From positions 832,001 to 896,000 of the forward strand of contig CAXXUA010000004.1 of assembly GCA_963663765.2 (NCBI GenBank): a stretch of 64,000 bases of DNA, read 5' to 3'. Of the stretch, positions 43,646-54,361 are shown piece after piece. Position numbers and translations under genes: made by a program. How positions within the stretch are numbered: position 1 is the stretch's first letter; each line of letters begins with the position of its first letter. The DNA is from Candidatus Poribacteria bacterium. Its GTDB lineage: Bacteria > Poribacteria > WGA-4E > WGA-3G. The notes under the pieces are model-generated. The model had not been told where the DNA came from. It did no database searches and was given only the letters and a program-made list of their open reading frames with translations.

Positions 43646-45139
43646 CTAACTCATTACCTGCCAAATTGGTTCCGCACCCTCAACACCAACGAGTTTTTGG
43701 TCTAATCCGCTATGGAAGTAAGTGAGTTGATTCGGGGCAATGCCAAGTTGATGAAGGATTGTAGCGTGCAGATGTCTGACATGGAAAGGGTCTTTGGCAG
43801 CCGCACTACCGAGTTCATCTGTCTCGCCAACACTGATACCACCTTTGATGCCACCACCCGCCATCCACATCGTGAAACCGTATGAGTTGTGGTCACGACC
43901 TGTGCCTTTTGCGTACTCTGCTGTTGGTTGGCGACCAAATTCACCACCCCATACAACAAGTGTTTCGTCAAGTAATCCGCGTTGTTTTAGGTCTTTCAGT
44001 AGACCAGCAATCGGTTTATCAGTTGCTTTGGCATGTTTGTTATGGTTTCTCTCAATGTCGCTATGTGCGTCCCAATTATCATCGTTATGTGCTCCCCCAG
44101 AATAGAGTTGAATGAACCGCACACCACGTTCAACTAATCGCCTTGCCAAAAGGCATTTTCTACCAAATTCCTCTGTCTCTTTCTCATTAATCCCGTACAG
44201 TGTATTGATGTATTCTGGTTCGCTATCCAAATTGACCGCTTCTGGTGCGGCAGATTGCATCTTAAAGGCTAACTCATAGCTTGAAATTCGAGCGGCGAGA
44301 TCGGTGTTGTCAGTCCGTTTAGAGAGATGGGTAGAATTAAATTTGCGCAAATAATCCAGTAGTCTGCGCTGTTCGCTTTCGGACATATCTTTTGCACGTT
44401 CCAAATTCAGTATCGGAGTGCCTTCTGAGCGAAAAACTGTACCTTGATAAACGGCAGGCATATACCCGCTACTCCAATTCTTCGCACCGCTAATTGGACC
44501 ACCCGTCCGGTCAAGCATAACGACATATCCAGGTAAATTCTCGTTCTCACTACCAAGACCATAGTTCACCCAAGAACCGAGTGATGGGTGACCGCTTAGT
44601 ATACGACCTGCGTTCATCATCAGCATCGCTGAACCGTGTAATGGTGAGTCTGCTGTCATTGATTTGATAAAGGCAATGTCATCAACACACGTTGCAATGT
44701 GTGGAAATAGTCCTGACACCCACTGTCCTGACTCACCGTGCTGTTTGAATTCCCATTTAGGACCGACGATGCGACCCTGATTCCTCTCACCACCACGTCC
44801 TTTTGTTTTTACTTGAACGGTTTTGTCGTTGAGTTCCGCCAATTTCGGTTTGTAATCAAAGGTATCAACATGGCTTGGACCGCCATACATGAATAGGAAT
44901 ATTACGCGCTTAGCCTTCGGTGTGAAGTGCGACGGTTTCGGCGCGAGGGGATTTTGATAGGGGGTTACACCGTCTGCTGCAAACGCTTGTGAATTGAGGA
45001 ATCCATCAGTGGATAATAGTCCTGTCAAGGCAAGCGATGCGAAACCTCCAGCGATGTTACCGATAAATTCCCTACGAGTTTGACCACAAAAACTACCTAC
45101 AGAATCTGTTCCTTTCTTAATCTTTGATTGACTATTCAT
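43646..45139 (-). CDS. DUF1501 family protein with a twin-arginine-like leader
   Basis: TRREFI, FMYGGPSHVDTFD, ARRLVERGVRF, WDAH and GEFGR. Confidence 0.9.
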   Translation of the reverse strand: MNSQSKIKKGTDSVGSFCGQTRREFIGNIAGGFASLALTGLLSTDGFLNSQAFAADGVTPYQNPLAPKPSHFTPKAKRVIFLFMYGGPSHVDTFDYKPKLAELNDKTVQVKTKGRGGERNQGRIVGPKWEFKQHGESGQWVSGLFPHIATCVDDIAFIKSMTADSPLHGSAMLMMNAGRILSGHPSLGSWVNYGLGSENENLPGYVVMLDRTGGPISGAKNWSSGYMPAVYQGTVFRSEGTPILNLERAKDMSESEQRRLLDYLRKFNSTHLSKRTDNTDLAARISSYELAFKMQSAAPEAVNLDSEPEYINTLYGINEKETEEFGRKCLLARRLVERGVRFIQLYSGGAHNDDNWDAHSDIERNHNKHAKATDKPIAGLLKDLKQRGLLDETLVVWGGEFGRQPTAEYAKGTGRDHNSYGFTMWMAGGGIKGGISVGETDELGSAAAKDPFHVRHLHATILHQLGIAPNQLTYFHSGLDQKLVGVEGAEPIWQVMS

Positions 45140-45189
45140 AACCTCACTCCAATCTTAGGTTTTGTTTTGAAATTCAAAAACAGTTCAAA

Positions 45190-48102
45190 TTAATCTACAA
45201 ATATAAATTCGTTTAAATTCAACGCCAGCAACGCGAATCGAGTAAGCGCGACTTCTGAACTCAGAGCATCTTTTTGTTGAAGTTCCTGTATAAATGTTAA
45301 CGCGTGTTGAATCTCAGTTGCTACCGGTTCACGACAAAGCACAAGTCGTAGTCCAAATTTCACACGCTCTTCGACCGTCTCACCACCTTCCGATTGCATC
45401 TTGTTTGCAAATGCTTGAGCTTGATCATTGATAAATTTCCCATTTAGCATCGTCAGCGATTGGGTCGGCACCGTCGTTGAAAAACGAACTGGACATGTCG
45501 AATCGGTATTCGCTTGGTCGAATTGGTTCAGAATAGGAACAAGCAACGAACGCTTAATTTTTACATAAACACTCCGTCGGTTCGCCTCATCTGGTGGGGA
45601 TTTCCCCCACACACTCCCTGGTCTTGAAGCTGTTGCCAACACTTCTTGTGGTAGTTCAGGAAAAACACTCGGTCCTCCCATTTTAAGGTTCAACTTTCCA
45701 GTATTCCAAAGCACTGTGTCACGAATTTCTTCTGCTGCCAAGCGGCGAATGTTGAATCGCCAGAATAGATCATTGTTCGCATCCTGTTGAATGTAATCCG
45801 AGTGACTCTGAGATGACATACGATATGTGCTTGAGGTCATAATGAGTTTATGTATCGTTTTTAATCGCCAACCAGACGCGATGAATTCAGACGCAAGCCA
45901 ATCGAGAAGTTCTGGATGTGTTGGGGGTGTACCTAACTTGCCAAAATCGTTGGAAGACCGTACAATTCCTCGTCCGAAATGATACTGCCAAATGCGATTA
46001 GCCATCACGCGTGCTGTAAGTGGGTTTTCAGCACGTCCCACCCATTCAGCAAAAACGCGCCGTTTTCCAGACGGTTTGCCATCTTTTGGATTTAACTGTA
46101 TGTTCTCTGCACGTGAATTCAGCACTTCAGGAAATGCAGGTTTTACCTCGCGCCCTACGAGATGCGGATTGCCACGCCGAAGAATATGCGTCGGTGTCTG
46201 TCCATTCTCCGAAACAGCTAAAGCAAGATAGTCGTAAGGTACACGTCGACGTCGAATGTTATCTCGCTGTTTTTTCAGTTCATTGTATTGATCTACCAAC
46301 ACCTTTAGTGGTGGGTTGCCTTTAATTCTTTCTGTATGTGTTTTTATGAGTTCGTCAAAATTGATCGTGGCAGCTGTTGAAAGAGACTGTTTCTCAAGAT
46401 TTGGTCCAGACCACGAGATTTCCAGATGTGGTTTATCTACATCTTTGATGAAATACTCAAGACGAATCGGCACATCACCAACTTCAAGAGTTAGTTGTGT
46501 TTCACTATCACCACTCAATTCACTGACTAATTGACCATTGAGAATTAGTCTAAAGGCACCATTCAGAACAAGGTGGAACGTATAGGTCGCATTTTCCGGT
46601 ACTTGTAATGTCCCTTCAAAGACCAAGCCGAAGTTCTTCTTTCGGTTTGCAGGTGCGAGTGTAAATAAGTTTCTAAATAATTTACCCTCGGCGGTAGGTT
46701 CAAGAGAATCAAAATCGTTAGGAAACTGTTCAAAGGTGTCACGATAGAAACGGTAGGTCAAGTCACGAATTGGAGACACCACGATGTCAGGTGCTATCGG
46801 TTCTGGATGAATCTTAGCGAGTTCTATTTTGATGTTTTCTTGTATTTGAAAGAGATCATCTTGGCATTTTTCTTCTGCTTGTCGTTTTTCAGCCAGTTGT
46901 CTGTCACGTTCAGCTTGCTGTTCAGGTGTACCTATGTCGGCATGCGGTCCACTGTTATGGGGAGTGATGTCATGGAAAAACGCAAGAAAACTGTAATAGT
47001 CATGTGTTGAAATAGGGTCAATTTTATGGTCATGGCATCGCGCACAACCAATTGTCATACCAAGCATCACTTGTCCGGTCGTAGAAACAATATCGTCAAG
47101 ATAGTCGTACCGAGCAAGTTTCCGATCCGCTGGCCCATTGTCCCAAACACCGAGTCTATGATACCCAGTCGCAATGATAGTCTCTGGAGATACGGTATCA
47201 AGTTCATCACCTGCCAATTGTTCCTTGATGAATTCATCATACGGTTTGTCTTGGTTGAACGCGTTAATGACATAGTCTCTGTATCGCCATACATAAGGCT
47301 TGTCAGAATCACTTTCATAACCGTTTGTCTCAGCGTACCGTACAAGATCAAGCCAATGTCGTCCCCATTTTTCACCATACCGAGGTGATTCCAGAAGTTC
47401 GTCAATTAGTTTCTCATAAGCGAATGGTGAAGTGTTATTTAAAAAGGAGTCCACTGCTTCTGGGGAAGGTGGTAATCCTGTGAGATCATAGTATGCCCGA
47501 CGAATAAGCGTCAGTTTGCTTGCGGGAGCGGCGGGGGTATAACAGCGTTCCTCCAGTTTTGCAAGAATAAACGCGTCAATTGGATTCCTCACCCAATCTA
47601 ATGAATACACCGATGGCACTTGAGGTCGTCTTAACGGACGGTATGCCCAATAATCGGATGCAGTTTCAGAAACCGATATGACGTTTCCATCTTGATCGGG
47701 ATATGGAAGTCCCATGTTAATCCACTTTGCTAACACCTCAAGCGAGGCATCATCTAACTTACCATCTGGCGGCATCTCTGCTGTTTCTTGACCGTAACCA
47801 ACCATCTCAAGCAAGAAACTGTCATCAGGTTCTTCTAACGACACCGCGGCTCCGTAATGTCCACCTTCAAGTATCTTTTCCCTATTCGTCAATTCAAGTC
47901 CACCCTGCACTTCGGCTTCACCACCGTGGCATTGGAAACAGTTTTGTTCAAGAATCGGTTTCACTTGAGTGTTAAAGAATTCAGCCTTTTCTTTATCACT
48001 CAGATTATTCGCATGACTGGTACTCAGAAAAATCAACGCACATAAGATAACAATAATACCAAAACAGAAATGATAAGAATGTTGCATAGTTTCTCCATTC
48101 AA
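45190..48102 (-). CDS. PSD1/planctomycete cytochrome c protein (DUF1549 + PA14-like + DUF1553)
   Basis: CFQCHG, CARCHDHK, WLDLVRYAET, NPLTARVMANRIW and PTHPELLDWLA. Confidence 0.9.
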   Translation of the reverse strand: MNGETMQHSYHFCFGIIVILCALIFLSTSHANNLSDKEKAEFFNTQVKPILEQNCFQCHGGEAEVQGGLELTNREKILEGGHYGAAVSLEEPDDSFLLEMVGYGQETAEMPPDGKLDDASLEVLAKWINMGLPYPDQDGNVISVSETASDYWAYRPLRRPQVPSVYSLDWVRNPIDAFILAKLEERCYTPAAPASKLTLIRRAYYDLTGLPPSPEAVDSFLNNTSPFAYEKLIDELLESPRYGEKWGRHWLDLVRYAETNGYESDSDKPYVWRYRDYVINAFNQDKPYDEFIKEQLAGDELDTVSPETIIATGYHRLGVWDNGPADRKLARYDYLDDIVSTTGQVMLGMTIGCARCHDHKIDPISTHDYYSFLAFFHDITPHNSGPHADIGTPEQQAERDRQLAEKRQAEEKCQDDLFQIQENIKIELAKIHPEPIAPDIVVSPIRDLTYRFYRDTFEQFPNDFDSLEPTAEGKLFRNLFTLAPANRKKNFGLVFEGTLQVPENATYTFHLVLNGAFRLILNGQLVSELSGDSETQLTLEVGDVPIRLEYFIKDVDKPHLEISWSGPNLEKQSLSTAATINFDELIKTHTERIKGNPPLKVLVDQYNELKKQRDNIRRRRVPYDYLALAVSENGQTPTHILRRGNPHLVGREVKPAFPEVLNSRAENIQLNPKDGKPSGKRRVFAEWVGRAENPLTARVMANRIWQYHFGRGIVRSSNDFGKLGTPPTHPELLDWLASEFIASGWRLKTIHKLIMTSSTYRMSSQSHSDYIQQDANNDLFWRFNIRRLAAEEIRDTVLWNTGKLNLKMGGPSVFPELPQEVLATASRPGSVWGKSPPDEANRRSVYVKIKRSLLVPILNQFDQANTDSTCPVRFSTTVPTQSLTMLNGKFINDQAQAFANKMQSEGGETVEERVKFGLRLVLCREPVATEIQHALTFIQELQQKDALSSEVALTRFALLALNLNEFIFVD

Positions 48103-48315: not shown

Positions 48316-49878
48316 TTACAACGAATCTAATGTTTCTTCCGTTTCAGTTTGCAGGACAGAAATTCGCGCAAGAAATGCATTAATGCTTCCCTTCTTGCAA
48401 AACCAATTACCTGTTGCCCCTAACTTAAACCGTTGTCCACGGGCAAACTGGTGGCGAATTTGTCCTGTGTCACCGGGCGGAATATCCCACGCTGAAGCGA
48501 GAGCATCATCTGGATACCCTTCAGTGGGCAGTTCAACATCAGCGTCAAATAGATCAAAAGAACCTTCTGCCTCACCCCCACCCACCTGTATATCAATAAT
48601 GAGCGTGCCACCTTGTTCATAAGACGTAGCGTCAATTTCAGTAGGTGTGTAATCCTGATAACCGTCTCCCGGACCACGAAAAACGTTCAAAACCTCCATT
48701 GATTGTTCACGCAAGTTCAAGTCCAATTTTGACACCAATTTCACTCTATTTTCGCTGGCAACGTTGGTGTTCATAACTTTGCCTTTCGCAACGTTTGCTA
48801 ACTGTGTTAAATATCTTTGTGCCGGATTGCGGCTCGGTAGTTTGTTTTCTGGCTGGTGCAAAATTAACTCTGCTTGGGGATTCAGCACCTGAATATCCAC
48901 TGCACCGACGTAATTTTCTTTGAGTGTTTTAGCAAAAACTCTGACCTTTTCACCCTCTGAATCCTCAATCCATGCTGACAAATCGCGAAAGAGCACACAA
49001 GTATTGACAAAATTCTCGTTCAGCACTTTGATGAGTTCCGAATTTGAGAGCGGACCCGCTCTCAAGTTTTTACCGTTCGCTCAGCAGGATTCATCGTCCA
49101 ACGGTCCCCAACTGATGACCGCATGCATCGGAAGCTGCGTCGCAGTTGCTTTTTCAACTGCCTCCTCAAGCGGTAGCCAATCAATTTCAGCGAACTTGTA
49201 GAACTTCAATTCCAATCTTTTGCGTGTCTCTTCGGATGTGACTGAACCGTCCCAATCAATTTCGTCCGGTGCTTTAGTTGAGGTGGCATGGAGTTTCATA
49301 CGCGGCACGAAAACCATGTCAGCATACCCAAAGTCATTGATATCCACATTGCTATTGCGCGGTGGTAGCGCGAGTGAAAAGTCACAAACGATACCTGTTT
49401 TTAGGTTGATGAGCAAACACCCAGCAAATTGTGATGGAATAAAGCGAGCGACATCCATATCATCATCGTTACGGCGTTTCGATTCCGGTTTGGGACGGGT
49501 CGCCAAAGTAAACTCTGCATGAATTCGGAACGTAATGTCTGCGTAGTCCGGCGAAAGTGCACGTAAACAGGCGAAAGCCCCTTCCTGTCCGTTGCCCAAT
49601 TTCCCTGTAGCACCCGGGTGAAATTGTGAAAGAAACGGAATAACTCTGTCCAGATCAAGCTCCCAAACATCGCCTACCGTCACATTTGACGTTGGAAGAA
49701 AGGCGTTGAAAGCCTCTACTTTATACTCTCTGGTAGGTTCGTTTGGTGCCAGATCAAAGAGTTCCATGTTTTCTGGTGAGTCTTGGTGTAGGTCGTAGGT
49801 TGCATCGGCAATTGGGTCCCAATGTGCATAGATTTGTAAAGTTGCTGTATTTTTCAAGACACTGTTAAGGTCTACCAT
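48316..49878 (-). CDS. Selenoprotein N-like protein, 520 aa, Sec (UGA) at codon 266 (49081-49083)
   Basis: ORFs 49081..49878 and 48316..49065 are in frame: WGPLDDESC-tga-ANGKNLRAGPLS. FRIHAEF, PSQFAG and NVD match SELENON as remembered. Confidence 0.85.
49044..49065 (-). promoter_or_regulatory. Putative bacterial SECIS hairpin
   Basis: UUGAGAGCG-GGUC-CGCUCUCAA: a 9-bp stem with a G-initial 4-nt loop 24 nt after the UGA. Confidence 0.75.
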
Positions 49879-50106: not shown

Positions 50107-52146
50107 CTACAGGTAAGGTCTCATATCCCAAAGCACGATAGTACCATCAAAACTACCACTTGCCAGTAGTGTGCCATCTGGCGAGAATGCCAATGACTGA
50201 ATATCTGTCGGATGTCCCCAGAGAGTAGTTATGTTCTCTCCACTTGCAACATCCCATAACCTAATTGCCATTTTCTCCATTCCCTTCTGCCACCATGTGC
50301 CTGATGTAAGATAACGTCCACACGGTGAAAATGTCAGAGCATAAGGCTTTTCTGTTTGAAACTGCGGTATTGCAAATAGCGTTGTCAAACTTTCGGCACA
50401 CCACAAACGCAATTCACCGTACATTCCACCAGCAATCACTTTCCCACACGGCGAAAATGCTATCTTCATAAGTATACCACGTTCCTTCAAAGACAATGTG
50501 GTAATCTCTTTGCTTGTCTCTACGTCCCACAGTCGAGCAGTTCTATCACTTGAACCACTTACGAGTCTTTTACCATCTGGTGAATATTTCACTGACCAAA
50601 TAAAATCTGTATGTCCAGTAAATGGCTTTAACTTTTCCTTATTTTTGAAATCCCATTGATAGATTGTACCTTCTCTACTTCCAACTGCAAGTTGATCGCT
50701 TGTCGGTGAAAATGCTATTTTCCATGTCAATTGTGCCTGTTCGGTAAATTCAGCGATCGGTTCGTCAGGTTTCCCAGCATCCCACACACAGCCATAGTCG
50801 TCGTTGGATCGGATATATGCACCGATGATGTTTCCGCAAGGTAAAACGGAAAAAGAAGTTATCCTCGTGTTCTCCAGTATTGTATCCTGCACCTGTTTAC
50901 TCTCAACATCCCATAGTGCAATTCCCCTATGATCACTCGTGCTTGCAAGTGTCTTTCCATCCGGTAAAAACAGTACAGGTTGCGGAACATGATTAAATCT
51001 ACGAAGTGTTGTGGTTAAGTGTGTGTGGTACCCCACCTCTGACTCTTTGCTCAGTGTAAAGTCTGTAAGAGCCAGCTGTGGGAACTCTCTAAACCACATC
51101 GCATCAATACTACGGGGATGAATTGCTGGAATGCAAAGTTTTTCTCTACGTTCAACATTCCAGACATCAACAGTATCTTCTCCATTCACAATCGCGAACA
51201 ACTCACCTTCTTCGGAATAGAATGGAACTATCCGAGTCGATCCAAAATCAGTATAAACCTCCTTTTGCTTACCCTTTGCTATGTCCCAGACGCGTAAGCT
51301 TTTATCTCTACTACTCGATGTGATGAATTTTTTACAAGGTGAGAAGGTGATATAATCTACCCAGTCCTTATGACCAATGAAATGTGCAATGCGTTCACCT
51401 GATACTATATCCCAGACTGAGACACATTGTGCAACCCAACCGGTATCGCTGGTGGATTCGTCAGGGGTCGCTGCTGCCAGTAGGTGGTTATCTTGCGAAA
51501 AGATTCTATTTACTCCTGCGAACTTGAATATTAATTCACCAGTCTCAGGACACCAGATGTAAGTTTGCGTACCTTCTGTGCCAAGGTTATCTGCAGTTGC
51601 AGCAACGTATTGTCCATTTGGAGAAAATTCCAAATCGTAAATATCCGCTGAAGTAACTTCACGTTCTCCTCGGTCCATCTGTGCGATGCAAACATCTTCA
51701 TGGACATCCAAAACCTCAACGATTCCTTTCTGATTTGCCGTGACAATCCACTTACTATCAGGGGAAAATGAAACATGCCAATAGATATTTTGTTCTTGCA
51801 TTCGTTTCATCTGTCCTAAACATTCTCCACTCTGAGCATCCAGCAATTTGACTATACCGTCATAATTGGCAACAGCAATCCACTCTCCATTTGGTGAAAA
51901 ATCCAGAGTGGAAATCATCCCTCGTTCTGTTTCCCACAATGCGATAGGTAACTTTGACGACATTTCATACCACCAAAGTCCCACAAGTGTACCGACAGCA
52001 AAGTACTTACTTTTAGGGGAAAGTGCTATTTTATGACTTCTTCCTTTCCCCAACCGAGCGATTGCGTTTTCTGGCAGTACCCATGTCGTTCCTTCAGTGT
52101 CCCTCAGCACAACATTGAATGGTGCCGGTCTTCTATTTTGTTTCAT
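50107..52146 (-). CDS. WD40-repeat (double beta-propeller-like) protein
   Basis: Many GH...FSPDG...WD repeats and N-terminal WVLPENAIARLGKG. Confidence 0.9.
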   Translation of the reverse strand: MKQNRRPAPFNVVLRDTEGTTWVLPENAIARLGKGRSHKIALSPKSKYFAVGTLVGLWWYEMSSKLPIALWETERGMISTLDFSPNGEWIAVANYDGIVKLLDAQSGECLGQMKRMQEQNIYWHVSFSPDSKWIVTANQKGIVEVLDVHEDVCIAQMDRGEREVTSADIYDLEFSPNGQYVAATADNLGTEGTQTYIWCPETGELIFKFAGVNRIFSQDNHLLAAATPDESTSDTGWVAQCVSVWDIVSGERIAHFIGHKDWVDYITFSPCKKFITSSSRDKSLRVWDIAKGKQKEVYTDFGSTRIVPFYSEEGELFAIVNGEDTVDVWNVERREKLCIPAIHPRSIDAMWFREFPQLALTDFTLSKESEVGYHTHLTTTLRRFNHVPQPVLFLPDGKTLASTSDHRGIALWDVESKQVQDTILENTRITSFSVLPCGNIIGAYIRSNDDYGCVWDAGKPDEPIAEFTEQAQLTWKIAFSPTSDQLAVGSREGTIYQWDFKNKEKLKPFTGHTDFIWSVKYSPDGKRLVSGSSDRTARLWDVETSKEITTLSLKERGILMKIAFSPCGKVIAGGMYGELRLWCAESLTTLFAIPQFQTEKPYALTFSPCGRYLTSGTWWQKGMEKMAIRLWDVASGENITTLWGHPTDIQSLAFSPDGTLLASGSFDGTIVLWDMRPYL

Positions 52147-52179
52147 ATATTAACTCCTTGGTTTAGTTTTTATGTATTT

Positions 52180-52301
52180 CAGGACTTACGCAGTTTTCTT
52201 GATTTAATCAAATATTATGTTGAAAATGATGCAATTATCAGCGTTTTTATGGGTTTCCAGCGCGCTTACAAAGCACGTCTACCTTTTTTGCGTAAGTCCT
52301 G
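52180..52301. mobile_element. MITE family D copy 3 (inverted)
   Basis: Same TIRs and a 5-bp direct repeat TATTT. Carries CAGCGCGCTTACAAAGCACGTCTACC, the unit of the 41.6 kb array. Confidence 0.88.
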
Positions 52302-52348
52302 TATTTATAAGATTGTAGCTGGAAATTGCATCTATACACGCTGAGGAA

Positions 52349-54361
52349 CTAACTTTGGATATAAGGTTTCATATCCCAAAGCAGAATGGTACCATCATAC
52401 CCGCCACTTGCCAATACGGAACCATCAGGTGAAAATGCCAGACATTGGATATCTGACGGATGTCCTCGGAAATCTGTGATTTTTTCACCGGTCTTAACAT
52501 CCCACAACAACACCGGACACTTCTTAATACCGAAGTCACGTATCCACCACGCACCAGAAGCCAAATAGCACCCACACGGTGAAAAGGCTAACGCATAAGG
52601 ATATACACTATCTTGTGGTAGCGGTAGTGTCAAAACGATCTCACAATGGACGGTGTCCCATAACAGAAGTTCTCGAATTCTTCCACAAGCTATCAGACGA
52701 CTGCAATCAGAAAAGGCAATTGCACGAATTTATTTTGGGAACGCTTCAATAGACTCACCACTTTCAACATCCCACATTCGGGATTTAGGTCCAGTGCTGC
52801 TAATGCTTACCAGCAGTTTTTCATTTGGACTAAAAGCAAGTGAATACGTCCCTTCAGCATGCGCTTTGAACGCATGCTGTATGTGCTGTTTCTGCACATC
52901 CCACACATACAGCATGCCATCACTATCCGTGCATGCCAGTTTGTTGCTTTTGTGTGCGAATACTGCCGTTGATACTTGCCGTTCTTGTTCGGTAAGTCGT
53001 CTTTTTTCGTTAGGAAGGGTAAAAGTTGCAACTGGAGTCTCTGCATTTCCAATATCCCAGACCTTTGCAATTGAACCGTCACGACCAGCTGCATAGATTT
53101 TTCCCTGTGACGACACAGAGACATTAAATTTTCTTCCAGGTAGATTGAAACTGGATGGTGGTAAGAAAGGTAGGGTAATATCCCATAACCTTACCTTCCC
53201 GTTTTCGCTCCTATACCCGCCTACAAGCGTTTTTCCATCTGGGGTAAAAACCAGCGAAAAAGGAACGCCAGTATGTAAATGTGGAGACAAATGTGGTTCG
53301 GAATTTCCCATCGTCCATTTCCGAAATTCACGGGGATTCTTGGAAGCTAAAACATAAGAAGTGCCCTTTGGAACGTGTGCACCCTGGAGAGAATTATGTT
53401 CTTCAAGGAAGAGGTTACCCTTTTCACCATGCGCTATGTCCCACACTATTAAGGCATCATCAGACATCTCTAAAGCATACAGCATGCCCTCTGGTGAATA
53501 AAAGACCTTCTTCCATTCCGTGCCAAGATTTTGAAATGTATGGAGCAACTCCCAATTTATGACTGACCAAACTCGAATTGCGCCATCTCGTCCACCAGAT
53601 GCAAGGAACTGTCCACAGGGTGAAAAGACAACACTATAAACAAAATCAGGATGTTCTGTAAGACAAGTGAGTTGCTCACCTGTTTTTATATTCCATATAA
53701 CGATATAGTTGGAAGTGTGTTCGGTTTTAGGGATTCTTGGGATTCTCCAACCGCGATCTGCATGTGTGAATAAACGTTCATCAGACATTGTACAAGCGAT
53801 TAAACTGCTATCCGGAGAGAAGGCAATAGGACGTCGTAGAATAGGTTCCCAGATATAATTGGTATTGTCGTGAAATTTTGCAATCAGCTCCCATGTTTCA
53901 GTATTCCAGACATATAAGATGTAGTCACGCTTATTGGAAACAGCGAGAAGCTGACTATCAGGCGAGAAGACGATGTGGGAGACATAATCGTAAGATCTCT
54001 CCGCTTCATCTCGTTCCATTTGAGAAATGCAAACACCTCTCTGCCAATCCCATACCTTGACGAGGCCGTCTCCATCGGCTGTAGCAAGCCACTTGCCGTT
54101 TGGTGAAAAGGAGACAGCATCAATATATCCCCTATCAGTTTCCCAGAGATCAATAGGAACCATAGTGGATAAATCATACCACCATATCCCTATAGAACTC
54201 CCGCATGCAAAGTGTTTTCCATCAGGAGAATATGATGTGGTATCAGGTATTATTAACCCTTGCCCGAATCGTGCAATAGCGCCATCAGGAAGTTCCCAGG
54301 TGGTTATATCATTGTTTTTAATTTGCCCTAAAGCAGACGACCAGACTGCACTCTTTTGCAT
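52349..54361 (-). pseudogene. WD40-repeat protein gene with one in-frame TAA at 52730-52732
   Basis: The frame continues FPK*IRAIAFSDCSRLIACG...WDMKPYIQS and is collinear with paralog 50107..52146. Confidence 0.8.

Follow-up and report, generated by a model that had tools for sequence, protein, structure and literature searches.

We report that a minus-strand gene in a stretch of 64,000 nucleotides (nt) from a Candidatus Poribacteria genome very probably encodes a single cytoplasmic selenoprotein of 520 residues, a bacterial homolog of animal selenoprotein N (SELENON, SEPN1). The stretch, called the window throughout, covers positions 832,001 to 896,000 of contig CAXXUA010000004.1 and comes from a 6.35-Mb genome with a completeness of 97.8%; the gene lies at window positions 49878..48316. 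Its frame is interrupted once, by a UGA codon that we read as selenocysteine (Sec), and by analogy with the animal protein its product would be a reductase. Judged from its sequence, it is a real bacterial selenoprotein that had not been curated before. It belongs to the SELENON family, has a recoding signal of bacterial type and is built differently from the animal proteins; Sec insertion and reductase function are predicted for it.

One reading frame across a UGA codon

A sequence-only reading of the window had proposed that two separately called open reading frames (ORFs) are the halves of one gene, and we found that they do share a single frame. The upstream ORF (49878..49081, minus strand) encodes 265 amino acids (aa) and ends ...WGPLDDESC, the downstream ORF (49065..48316, minus strand) encodes 249 aa from an internal TTG, and their sole separator is the TGA at 49083-49081. 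Reading through it gives a 520-aa product with one recoded codon, U266, within HAVISWGPLDDESC-U-ANGKNLRAGPLSNSELIKVLNENFVNT. The features of the gene are as follows.

48316..49878, minus strand: coding sequence (CDS) of the selenoprotein N homolog, 520 residues with one in-frame UGA; ATG at 49878, stop codon 48316-48318 included
49081..49083, minus strand: UGA predicted to be read as selenocysteine (U266); the homologous codon is TGA in relatives
49078..49089, minus strand: putative redox motif Ser-Cys-Sec-Ala, residues 264-267, with a vicinal Cys-Sec dyad, from the translation; SCUG in paralogs

Upstream of the ATG the frame stays open for only 4 extra codons (524 aa open against 520 matched). 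The N terminus of the 520-aa product carries no hydrophobic segment and has 12 residues ahead of the first conserved strand. The blocks GAFACL, FRIHAEF, PSQFAG and NVD, by which the sequence-only reading had likened the product to human SELENON, are all present in the translation, and the same reading was right about the missing N-terminal transmembrane segment, the SCUA motif and the extra C-terminal domain of about 120 aa.

The read-through product matched no family in Pfam or NCBIfam scans, and a PDB sequence search with it returned 0 hits at E <= 1. BLASTP aligned it with the selenoprotein N of Megalops (3e-35, residues 45-341) and of Varanus (1e-25, residues 13-341); both alignments cross the UGA into GKNLRAGPLSNSELIKVLNENFVNT, as had been expected of a true read-through product. 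P0042, a poribacterial N-terminal half, was compared with longer proteins and matched Megalops atlanticus selenoprotein N (9.7e-22), with further matches to a Xenopus EF-hand protein, to Solemya and Owenia proteins and to Varanus selenoprotein N. A family profile made from ten full-length members found 1087 clusters (50% identity) at E <= 1e-3, 588 at 1e-10 and 223 at 1e-30. Its named top matches were selenoprotein N or SELENON of primate, dog, hagfish, clam, octopus and amphioxus, and matches without a named function came from wombat, jellyfish, sea anemone, snail and rotifer. Unnamed eukaryote-type matches end ...WGALDDQSC, the point at which a gene caller would halt at a Sec codon, and the named animal records read ...SGRTLRE...LLNESFISTW, the Sec having been skipped by their gene models. 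On these alignments the gene is a homolog of the catalytic module of SELENON and not of the full animal architecture.

We searched 176 genomes of the phylum in six frames and found family matches in 131 of them: 109 of 111 genomes in the phylum's family f1, 10 of 11 in f2, 11 of 29 in f3, and 0 of 24 in the other eight families. From these matches we assembled a set of 70 loci, consisting of the 30 best and 40 chosen across identity classes, which on purpose included two rows without a stop. The set held 73 sites at the homologous codon. TGA stood at 71 of them, TGG at one (L054) and GGA at one (L077), and none carried TAA or TAG, the codons that the sequence-only reading had named as evidence against Sec. 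A second set was built with a paralog fused to an extracytoplasmic function (ECF) sigma factor as the query; the pattern was found at 27 sites in 24 of its 30 loci, several of which overlap the first set, and the codon was TGA at 26 sites and the Cys codon TGC at one.

The three replacements each differ from the Sec codon by a single base: TGG in L054 (G025:C1:2214735-2216187), GGA in L077 (G125:C173:4230-5967) and TGC in L083. The Trp (L054) and Gly (L077) forms keep the hairpin described below and may be catalytically dead or recently mutated. Cys forms reading SCCG also occur among unnamed metagenomic proteins, and the paralogs read SCUG or ACUG at the dyad.

We compared the gene by codon position with orthologs at 57-91% identity. 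In the half downstream of the UGA, differences at positions 1/2/3 numbered 12/12/50 against L013 and 30/22/78 against L014, and in the upstream half, too, third codon positions dominate. By this measure both halves of the gene are under purifying selection. The TGA is also present in independent public assemblies, as identical contigs showed when four public sequencing runs were examined (two records, 0 differences); among the public runs listed as matching the gene's words there was no RNA run. At the 50-nt stretch of active site and hairpin (window 49046-49110) public contigs break and the summed depth rises three- to four-fold. Other contigs differ there by 2-3 letters only, and the stretch behaves like a repeat common to paralogs or strains.

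Putative recoding signal, decoding machinery and predicted fold

The CDS contains a hairpin just downstream of the UGA, with the perfect 9-bp stem, the GGUC loop and the bacterial geometry that the sequence-only reading had described.

49044..49065, minus strand: bacterial SECIS (selenocysteine insertion sequence)-type hairpin within the CDS; 5' arm 49065-49057 UUGAGAGCG, loop 49056-49053 GGUC, 3' arm 49052-49044 CGCUCUCAA

That reading had placed the hairpin 24 nt after the UGA, which is correct for the apical loop; the stem itself starts 15 nt past the UGA. In the published model of a bacterial SECIS (PMC13188914), the apical loop measures 3-9 nt and has G as its first or second nucleotide, usually with G or U next; the upper stem has 4-16 bp, the loop lies 16-37 nt from the UGA, and the minimum free energy (MFE) is <= -7.5 kcal/mol. 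The hairpin here has all four of these published properties: its loop is GGUC, its stem 9 bp long and its spacing 24 nt, and the MFE computed over nt 12-48 past the UGA is -14.2 kcal/mol. Over a 67-nt stretch the MFE was -20.7 kcal/mol (z = -2.16), and 6 of 200 shuffled sequences folded equally well. An Rfam search of 48800-49300 gave 0 matches at E <= 10, so no curated RNA family covers the hairpin.

The hairpin rises above chance because it is conserved in relatives. The 71 TGA sites contained 61 distinct 48-mers, which fell into two classes, and the structure proved to be kept in both, in two registers and with compensatory changes. Class A hairpins (37 distinct sequences, encoding the peptide RAGPLS) retain GAGRGYG-GGUC-CRCUCUC. 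In this class 90.7% of cells are paired, compared with 27-61% when the partners are slid, and double-sided changes occur in two pairs (G-C to C-G and C-G to U-A, each seen twice). Class B hairpins (24 sequences, encoding RAGVLS, RAVVLS or RAVALS) have a 6-bp stem and an AGGU or AGUU loop; pairing is 100% of 144 cells against 49-81% slid, and a change from G-C to A-U links synonymous codons, AGG going with GCC and AGA with GCU. Between the classes the register of the 3' arm shifts by 2 nt, and a hairpin with a G(G/U)U loop is kept. In the Cys ortholog L083 the stem is retained and the loop reads AUUU, so that the loop G is lost (n = 1), while at least four orthologs in the same ECF-sigma-fused group have TGA with an AGUU loop. 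We regard the covariation, as seen in these alignments, as real but thin.

The genome contains the components needed to decode such a codon, a further check on the proposal. All of the following score over their curated cut-offs.

C4:273361-274458: selA (E = 1.4e-163)
C4:284343-286238: selB (361.6 bits against a cut-off of 242)
C4:286292-286385: tRNA-Sec (selC), anticodon UCA, directly 3' of selB (aragorn; Rfam RF01852, 78.5 bits)
C2:220603-221529: selD, whose frame has one TGA, at KCAG-U-ASK, with a long stem after it

Judged from this TGA, the genome's SelD is evidently a selenoprotein itself. Three of the genes, selA, selB and tRNA-Sec, are found on the window's contig inside a 13-kb stretch (C4:273361-286385), and 54 nt separate selB from the tRNA-Sec that follows it. 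Among the 51 tRNAs detected by aragorn, tRNA-Sec is the only one that reads UGA. TGA terminates 3 of the 27 window ORFs of at least 300 codons, and because it ends such ordinary ORFs we take the genetic code to be standard.

Models of two homologs, P0004 and P0212, together with alignments, suggest three domains in the product.

49264..49842, minus strand: N-terminal beta-rich region, about residues 13-205, with the GAFACL, FRIHAEF, PSQFAG and NVD blocks; predicted from alignment and the P0004 model, boundaries approximate
48763..49230, minus strand: thioredoxin-like alpha/beta domain with the Cys-Sec dyad, about residues 217-372; predicted from the P0004 and P0212 models via alignment, boundaries approximate
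48334..48717, minus strand: extra C-terminal all-beta domain, about residues 388-515; present neither in animal selenoprotein N nor in some bacterial paralogs

P0004 (526 aa) is 39% identical to the 520-aa product over 96% of it. Its AlphaFold model (predicted local distance difference test score, pLDDT, 83.9; predicted template modelling score, pTM, 0.67) is all-beta over 39-219, alpha/beta over 234-388, with the SC-x motif after strand beta-1, and again all-beta over 405-522. Searched whole with Foldseek, it gave only generic beta-sandwich matches (PliG, collagen-binding domain, GOLD) and no whole-protein match. P0212, a 273-residue Cys-form fragment that lacks the last domain, gave a model with a pLDDT of 87.2, which Foldseek matched to DsbH 2ju5 (template modelling score, TM, 0.60), the DsbH-type 7tkv, the Thermus thioredoxin 2lst (TM 0.69), AGR3 3ph9 (TM 0.60) and the UAS domain 2dlx. 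We infer from these models that the Sec-bearing domain is thioredoxin-like, with the dyad in the loop after strand beta-1. A search of the ESM Atlas with the homolog P0006 found only a poribacterial cluster at 0.77.

In the alignment, the animal proteins, P0012 and P0142 end ahead of the extra C-terminal domain, whereas the 520-aa protein and many paralogs continue past that point for about 120 residues. This domain is a candidate substrate- or protein-binding module, though that is a guess. P0009 and P0023 each contain it twice; NCBI annotates the latter, which is a C-terminal fragment, as a 'BrnA antitoxin family protein'. A lone copy lies at the very end of contig C2 of the source genome (C2:301469-301849, L082) and is 47% identical to residues 391-510.

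Taken together, these features suggest how the protein could be made and could work. The hairpin would recruit SelB with Sec-tRNA(Sec), and Sec would be inserted at codon 266 in place of termination. The product would then fold into the beta-rich N-terminal domain, the thioredoxin-like domain and the added C-terminal beta-sandwich. By analogy with SEPN1, the Cys265-Sec266 dyad would most likely cycle between a selenenylsulfide and the reduced selenol/thiol and, on the same analogy, could reduce oxidised cysteines on partner proteins. The 520-aa protein should act in the cytoplasm, because the clade to which it belongs (SCUA motif, class A hairpin) has no signal peptide.

Alternative readings, paralogs and origin

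The most serious of the alternatives concerning the UGA, and still a distinctly unlikely one, is that it terminates translation, giving a 265-residue protein, with the downstream frame translated separately from the TTG at 49065 or not at all. Such a TTG with an open frame does follow the UGA, TGA is a working stop codon in this genome, and gene callers split the family at this point, proteins of about 300 residues that end ...DDESC dominating the database matches. Partial stopping at Sec codons is also normal for selenoproteins, and a truncated SEPN1 band has been described (PMC7474598, part of the text). Against termination, the frame continues across the TGA in 71 of the 73 sites, the natural variants are the sense codons TGG, GGA and TGC and never TAA or TAG, and in animals the homolog is one chain whose alignment spans the site. 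A thioredoxin-like fold would also need strand beta-1 from before the UGA and helix alpha-1 from after it, and the genome carries the full Sec machinery along with a SECIS-type hairpin.

It is highly improbable that the gene is a pseudogene disrupted by a nonsense mutation. Pseudogenes are typically recognised by an in-frame stop, and some relatives do look decayed: P0002 is without the Sec region, and a few matches have an extra TAG or TAA. The same stop codon, however, stands at an identical position in dozens of species and paralogs, where the animal family has its catalytic Sec, and both halves show the signs of purifying selection given above. P0002 is otherwise 71% identical to the 520-aa protein, an internal deletion having removed the Sec region.

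Just as improbable is that UGA encodes a standard amino acid, through a reassigned code (tables 4 or 25) or a suppressor tRNA, as might be thought from the W or G at this site in the database entries P0004, P0007, P0006 and P0012; the G and at least one W are real sense codons, GGA (L077) and TGG (L054), TGA ends ordinary genes of the window, and the only UCA anticodon among the 51 tRNAs is that of tRNA-Sec. We rejected all three readings: termination, a pseudogene and a reassigned code.

Several observations weigh against our preferred reading, a Sec-containing SELENON homolog. Insertion of Sec at codon 266 is itself inferred only, by comparison of sequences. The fold energy of the hairpin alone is only modestly unusual, which is suggestive and not decisive; most stem columns are invariant or changed on one side only, and the covariation is thin because the stem encodes a conserved peptide (LRAGPLS), part of the conservation thus being at the protein level. 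The Cys-versus-Sec control for the hairpin consists of one ortholog, L083. The fourth residue of the motif is Ala and not the Gly of SCUG. The structure models are of the homologs P0004 and P0212 and not of the 520-aa protein itself, and the thioredoxin-like matches of P0212, with probabilities of about 1, have weak E-values of 2.4e-4 to 2e-2. Lastly, the flanking genes (PSCyt/PSD1, DUF1501 and WD40) hint at no redox partner, and we saw nothing that ties them to the selenoprotein. Gaps of 228 nt upstream and 213 nt downstream set the gene apart from its neighbors, which are as follows.

43646-48102, minus strand: PSCyt1/PSCyt2/PA14/PSD1 protein (970 aa) and DUF1501 protein (497 aa)
50107-54361, minus strand: two WD40-repeat proteins (679 and 543 aa)

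The source genome has one copy of the gene and the lone C-terminal domain. Many relatives have more. Counting matches that span residue 266 and contain TGA, we found 12 Sec paralogs in genome G149, 10 in G166, 8 each in G175 and G130, and 7 in G172, often arranged in tandem. Arrays that comprise five to eight paralogs, all with a TGA of their own, lie at G130:C98:66494-78535, at G149:C1:5401939-5409757 and at L068 (G175:C1:913434-918751), and such arrays often alternate with extra copies of the C-terminal beta domain. The class B clades (SCUG or ACUG) and one further clade have clear signal peptides, and some paralogs stop where the animal proteins stop. Public annotation calls pieces of the family mostly 'hypothetical protein' and once 'BrnA antitoxin family protein'. 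One database entry, P0003, is an annotation artefact in which the C-half of a paralog is merged with the N-half of the paralog that follows it.

In nine genomes a single open frame of 690 residues encodes a fusion that runs from an ECF sigma factor (Pfam sigma-70 r2/r4) through a transmembrane segment to a selenoprotein N module. The orthologs of this fusion, L083-L091 (for example, G164:C1:2421783-2423852 and G154:C1:5219850-5221916), have TGA in eight cases and TGC in one. This domain arrangement suggests a Sec-dependent redox sensor wired to a sigma factor. The ECF-sigma and transmembrane module (P0142 residues 1-316, 60-72% identical) also occurs many times per genome before other large C-terminal regions, as at G171:C1:4937063-4938001, in open frames of 560-1050 aa, and looks like a big one-component sigma/anti-sigma fusion family. 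P0249 (1101 aa) begins with a long extension of about 840 residues, followed by the N-half of a selenoprotein N, which ends ...LDDEAC, probably at a Sec codon.

Beyond the named Poribacteria, there are unnamed metagenomic Cys forms (SCCG or ACCA), one of them fused to an ECF sigma factor. Scans of genome and metagenome contigs for Cys-type bacterial homologs confirmed no relative; the protein search gave 16 unnamed metagenomic proteins.

The sequence-only reading had described the family as mainly animal and had raised two origins for the gene, transfer from a sponge host and a bacterial root. The homology to animal proteins stands; 'mainly animal' does not, since the bacterial branches are deep and diverse and the family is heavily expanded in this phylum. 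We made a quick maximum-likelihood tree (62 rows, 392 columns, LG+G4), with support from the Shimodaira-Hasegawa-like approximate likelihood ratio test (SH-aLRT) only, drawn at its midpoint and unrooted, with no outgroup. Its sample has no sponge sequence and four long branches, and leaves out most of the more than 1000 hits. In this tree, 12 named animal and 5 unnamed animal-type rows lie on one side of a branch with an SH-aLRT of 99, and 45 bacterial-type rows lie on the other. The poribacterial rows split into two groups, and the Cys forms cluster with one of them (SH-aLRT 94).

Recent transfer of a sponge host's SELENON into the symbiont is not supported by this tree. The idea that the bacterial genes arose in that way draws on the fact that the family is otherwise best known from animals, on a public run labelled sponge metagenome that contains 60% of the gene's words, and on the homolog rows that name an organism, 7 of 7 of which are Candidatus Poribacteria. 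Animals and bacteria are nevertheless split by the SH-aLRT 99 branch, and the bacterial side is deeper and includes the Cys forms (94). The bacterial genes also have an in-frame bacterial SECIS and signal peptides or ECF sigma fusions, and they lack the EF-hand and membrane anchor. We consider such a transfer unlikely. Because the bacterial side is deeper and more varied in architecture, we lean towards a bacterial origin, as far as an unrooted tree without a sponge sequence can suggest one.

A more specific proposal, which we advance tentatively and which is somewhat more likely to be wrong than right, is that selenoprotein N was a bacterial redox module at its root, acquired once by an animal or eukaryote ancestor, and that its poribacterial expansion serves redox sensing and repair in the sponge host. 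This bacterial root, if true, would account for the Sec and Cys forms and for the cytoplasmic, secreted, lipoprotein-type and ECF sigma/anti-sigma sensor versions. The animal or eukaryote ancestor would have added the membrane anchor, the EF-hand and the SECIS of the 3' untranslated region (UTR). In Poribacteria the family would then be a major lineage-specific expansion of the selenoproteome, its Sec paralogs standing in tandem arrays and numbering as many as 12 in one genome.

Relation to known selenoproteins and redox domains

Mutations in SELENON/SEPN1 cause congenital myopathy. The chemistry of SEPN1 is poorly defined, and pure protein and crystals are hard to get (PMC8148124, part of the text); no three-dimensional structure had been solved as of PMC7474598 (part of the text). 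A soluble, anchor-less bacterial homolog could make the active-site structure, the redox potential and substrate trapping directly testable, and the natural Cys variants in relatives would help such work. If our reading is right, the soluble cytoplasmic copy could for the first time give a tractable model in which to study how the human myopathy protein is built and what chemistry it performs. The family would also be a case of one protein served by two unrelated recoding signals, and a large unrecognised block of selenoproteins in a dominant sponge-symbiont phylum, which annotation mostly splits into two 'hypothetical proteins' or mislabels.

We found no bacterial selenoprotein N in the literature searched, although supplementary tables of BSepDB and of large selenoproteome surveys may list the family. 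The main text of the BSepDB paper names neither SelN nor SELENON (PMC13326102), the available parts of PMC8148124, PMC13188914, PMC11227280 and PMC7539508 contain no mention of a bacterial selenoprotein N, and the text of the 2020 PNAS paper on SEPN1 contains no word beginning with bacteri or poribacter and no occurrence of Candidatus. SELENON has been recorded in a few algae (PMC7539508, part of the text). The families that a 2026 review gives as shared by prokaryotes and eukaryotes are, in the part of its main text available, SelD, GPX, deiodinase-like, SelW-like and MsrA (PMC13188914); selenoprotein N is unlisted there, and it has no Pfam or NCBIfam model.

With animal selenoprotein N, the bacterial protein shares similarity through the whole region that follows the EF-hand, the Sec codon included, and the blocks GA.AC(L/I)RA, FRIHAEF, P.QF.G, NVD and LN..F(V/I).(T/S). 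An adjacent Cys-Sec dyad stands at the homologous position, C427-U428 in human SEPN1, through which reductase activity was demonstrated with trapping mutants against SERCA2, and a thioredoxin-type domain around the Sec is predicted for SEPN1 and modelled in the bacterial homologs (PMC7474598, part of the text). The bacterial protein differs in having neither the type II membrane anchor nor the EF-hand, the alignment starting after the latter; in the predicted cytoplasmic location of the 520-aa copy, whereas the animal protein is in the lumen of the endoplasmic reticulum, a compartment that bacteria lack; and in reading SCUA in this copy, whereas the animal motif, like that of other paralogs, is SCUG. 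It adds a C-terminal beta-sandwich of about 120 residues, and relatives have up to 12 Sec paralogs per genome. Its Sec signal is a hairpin inside the CDS and not a SECIS in the 3' UTR, these being two systems (PMC13188914).

In structure, DsbH/AGR/UAS-type domains come closest to the modelled Sec-bearing domain. Identity to them is 11-19%; they have CxxC or a single Cys where the bacterial protein has a vicinal Cys-Sec dyad, and they lack the attached beta-rich N-terminal domain of the bacterial homolog. The dyad itself recalls the C-terminal GCUG of mammalian thioredoxin reductase, whose vicinal Cys-Sec pair forms a selenenylsulfide and is the usual chemical model for the SCUG of SELENON. In that enzyme GCUG sits in a flexible C-terminal tail of an unrelated flavoprotein fold, and the resemblance is one of mechanism only. 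With the bacterial selenoproteins decoded by SelB, such as formate dehydrogenase and SelD, the 520-aa protein has in common a UGA followed by a stem-loop, the presence of selA, selB, selC and selD, and a natural Cys ortholog.

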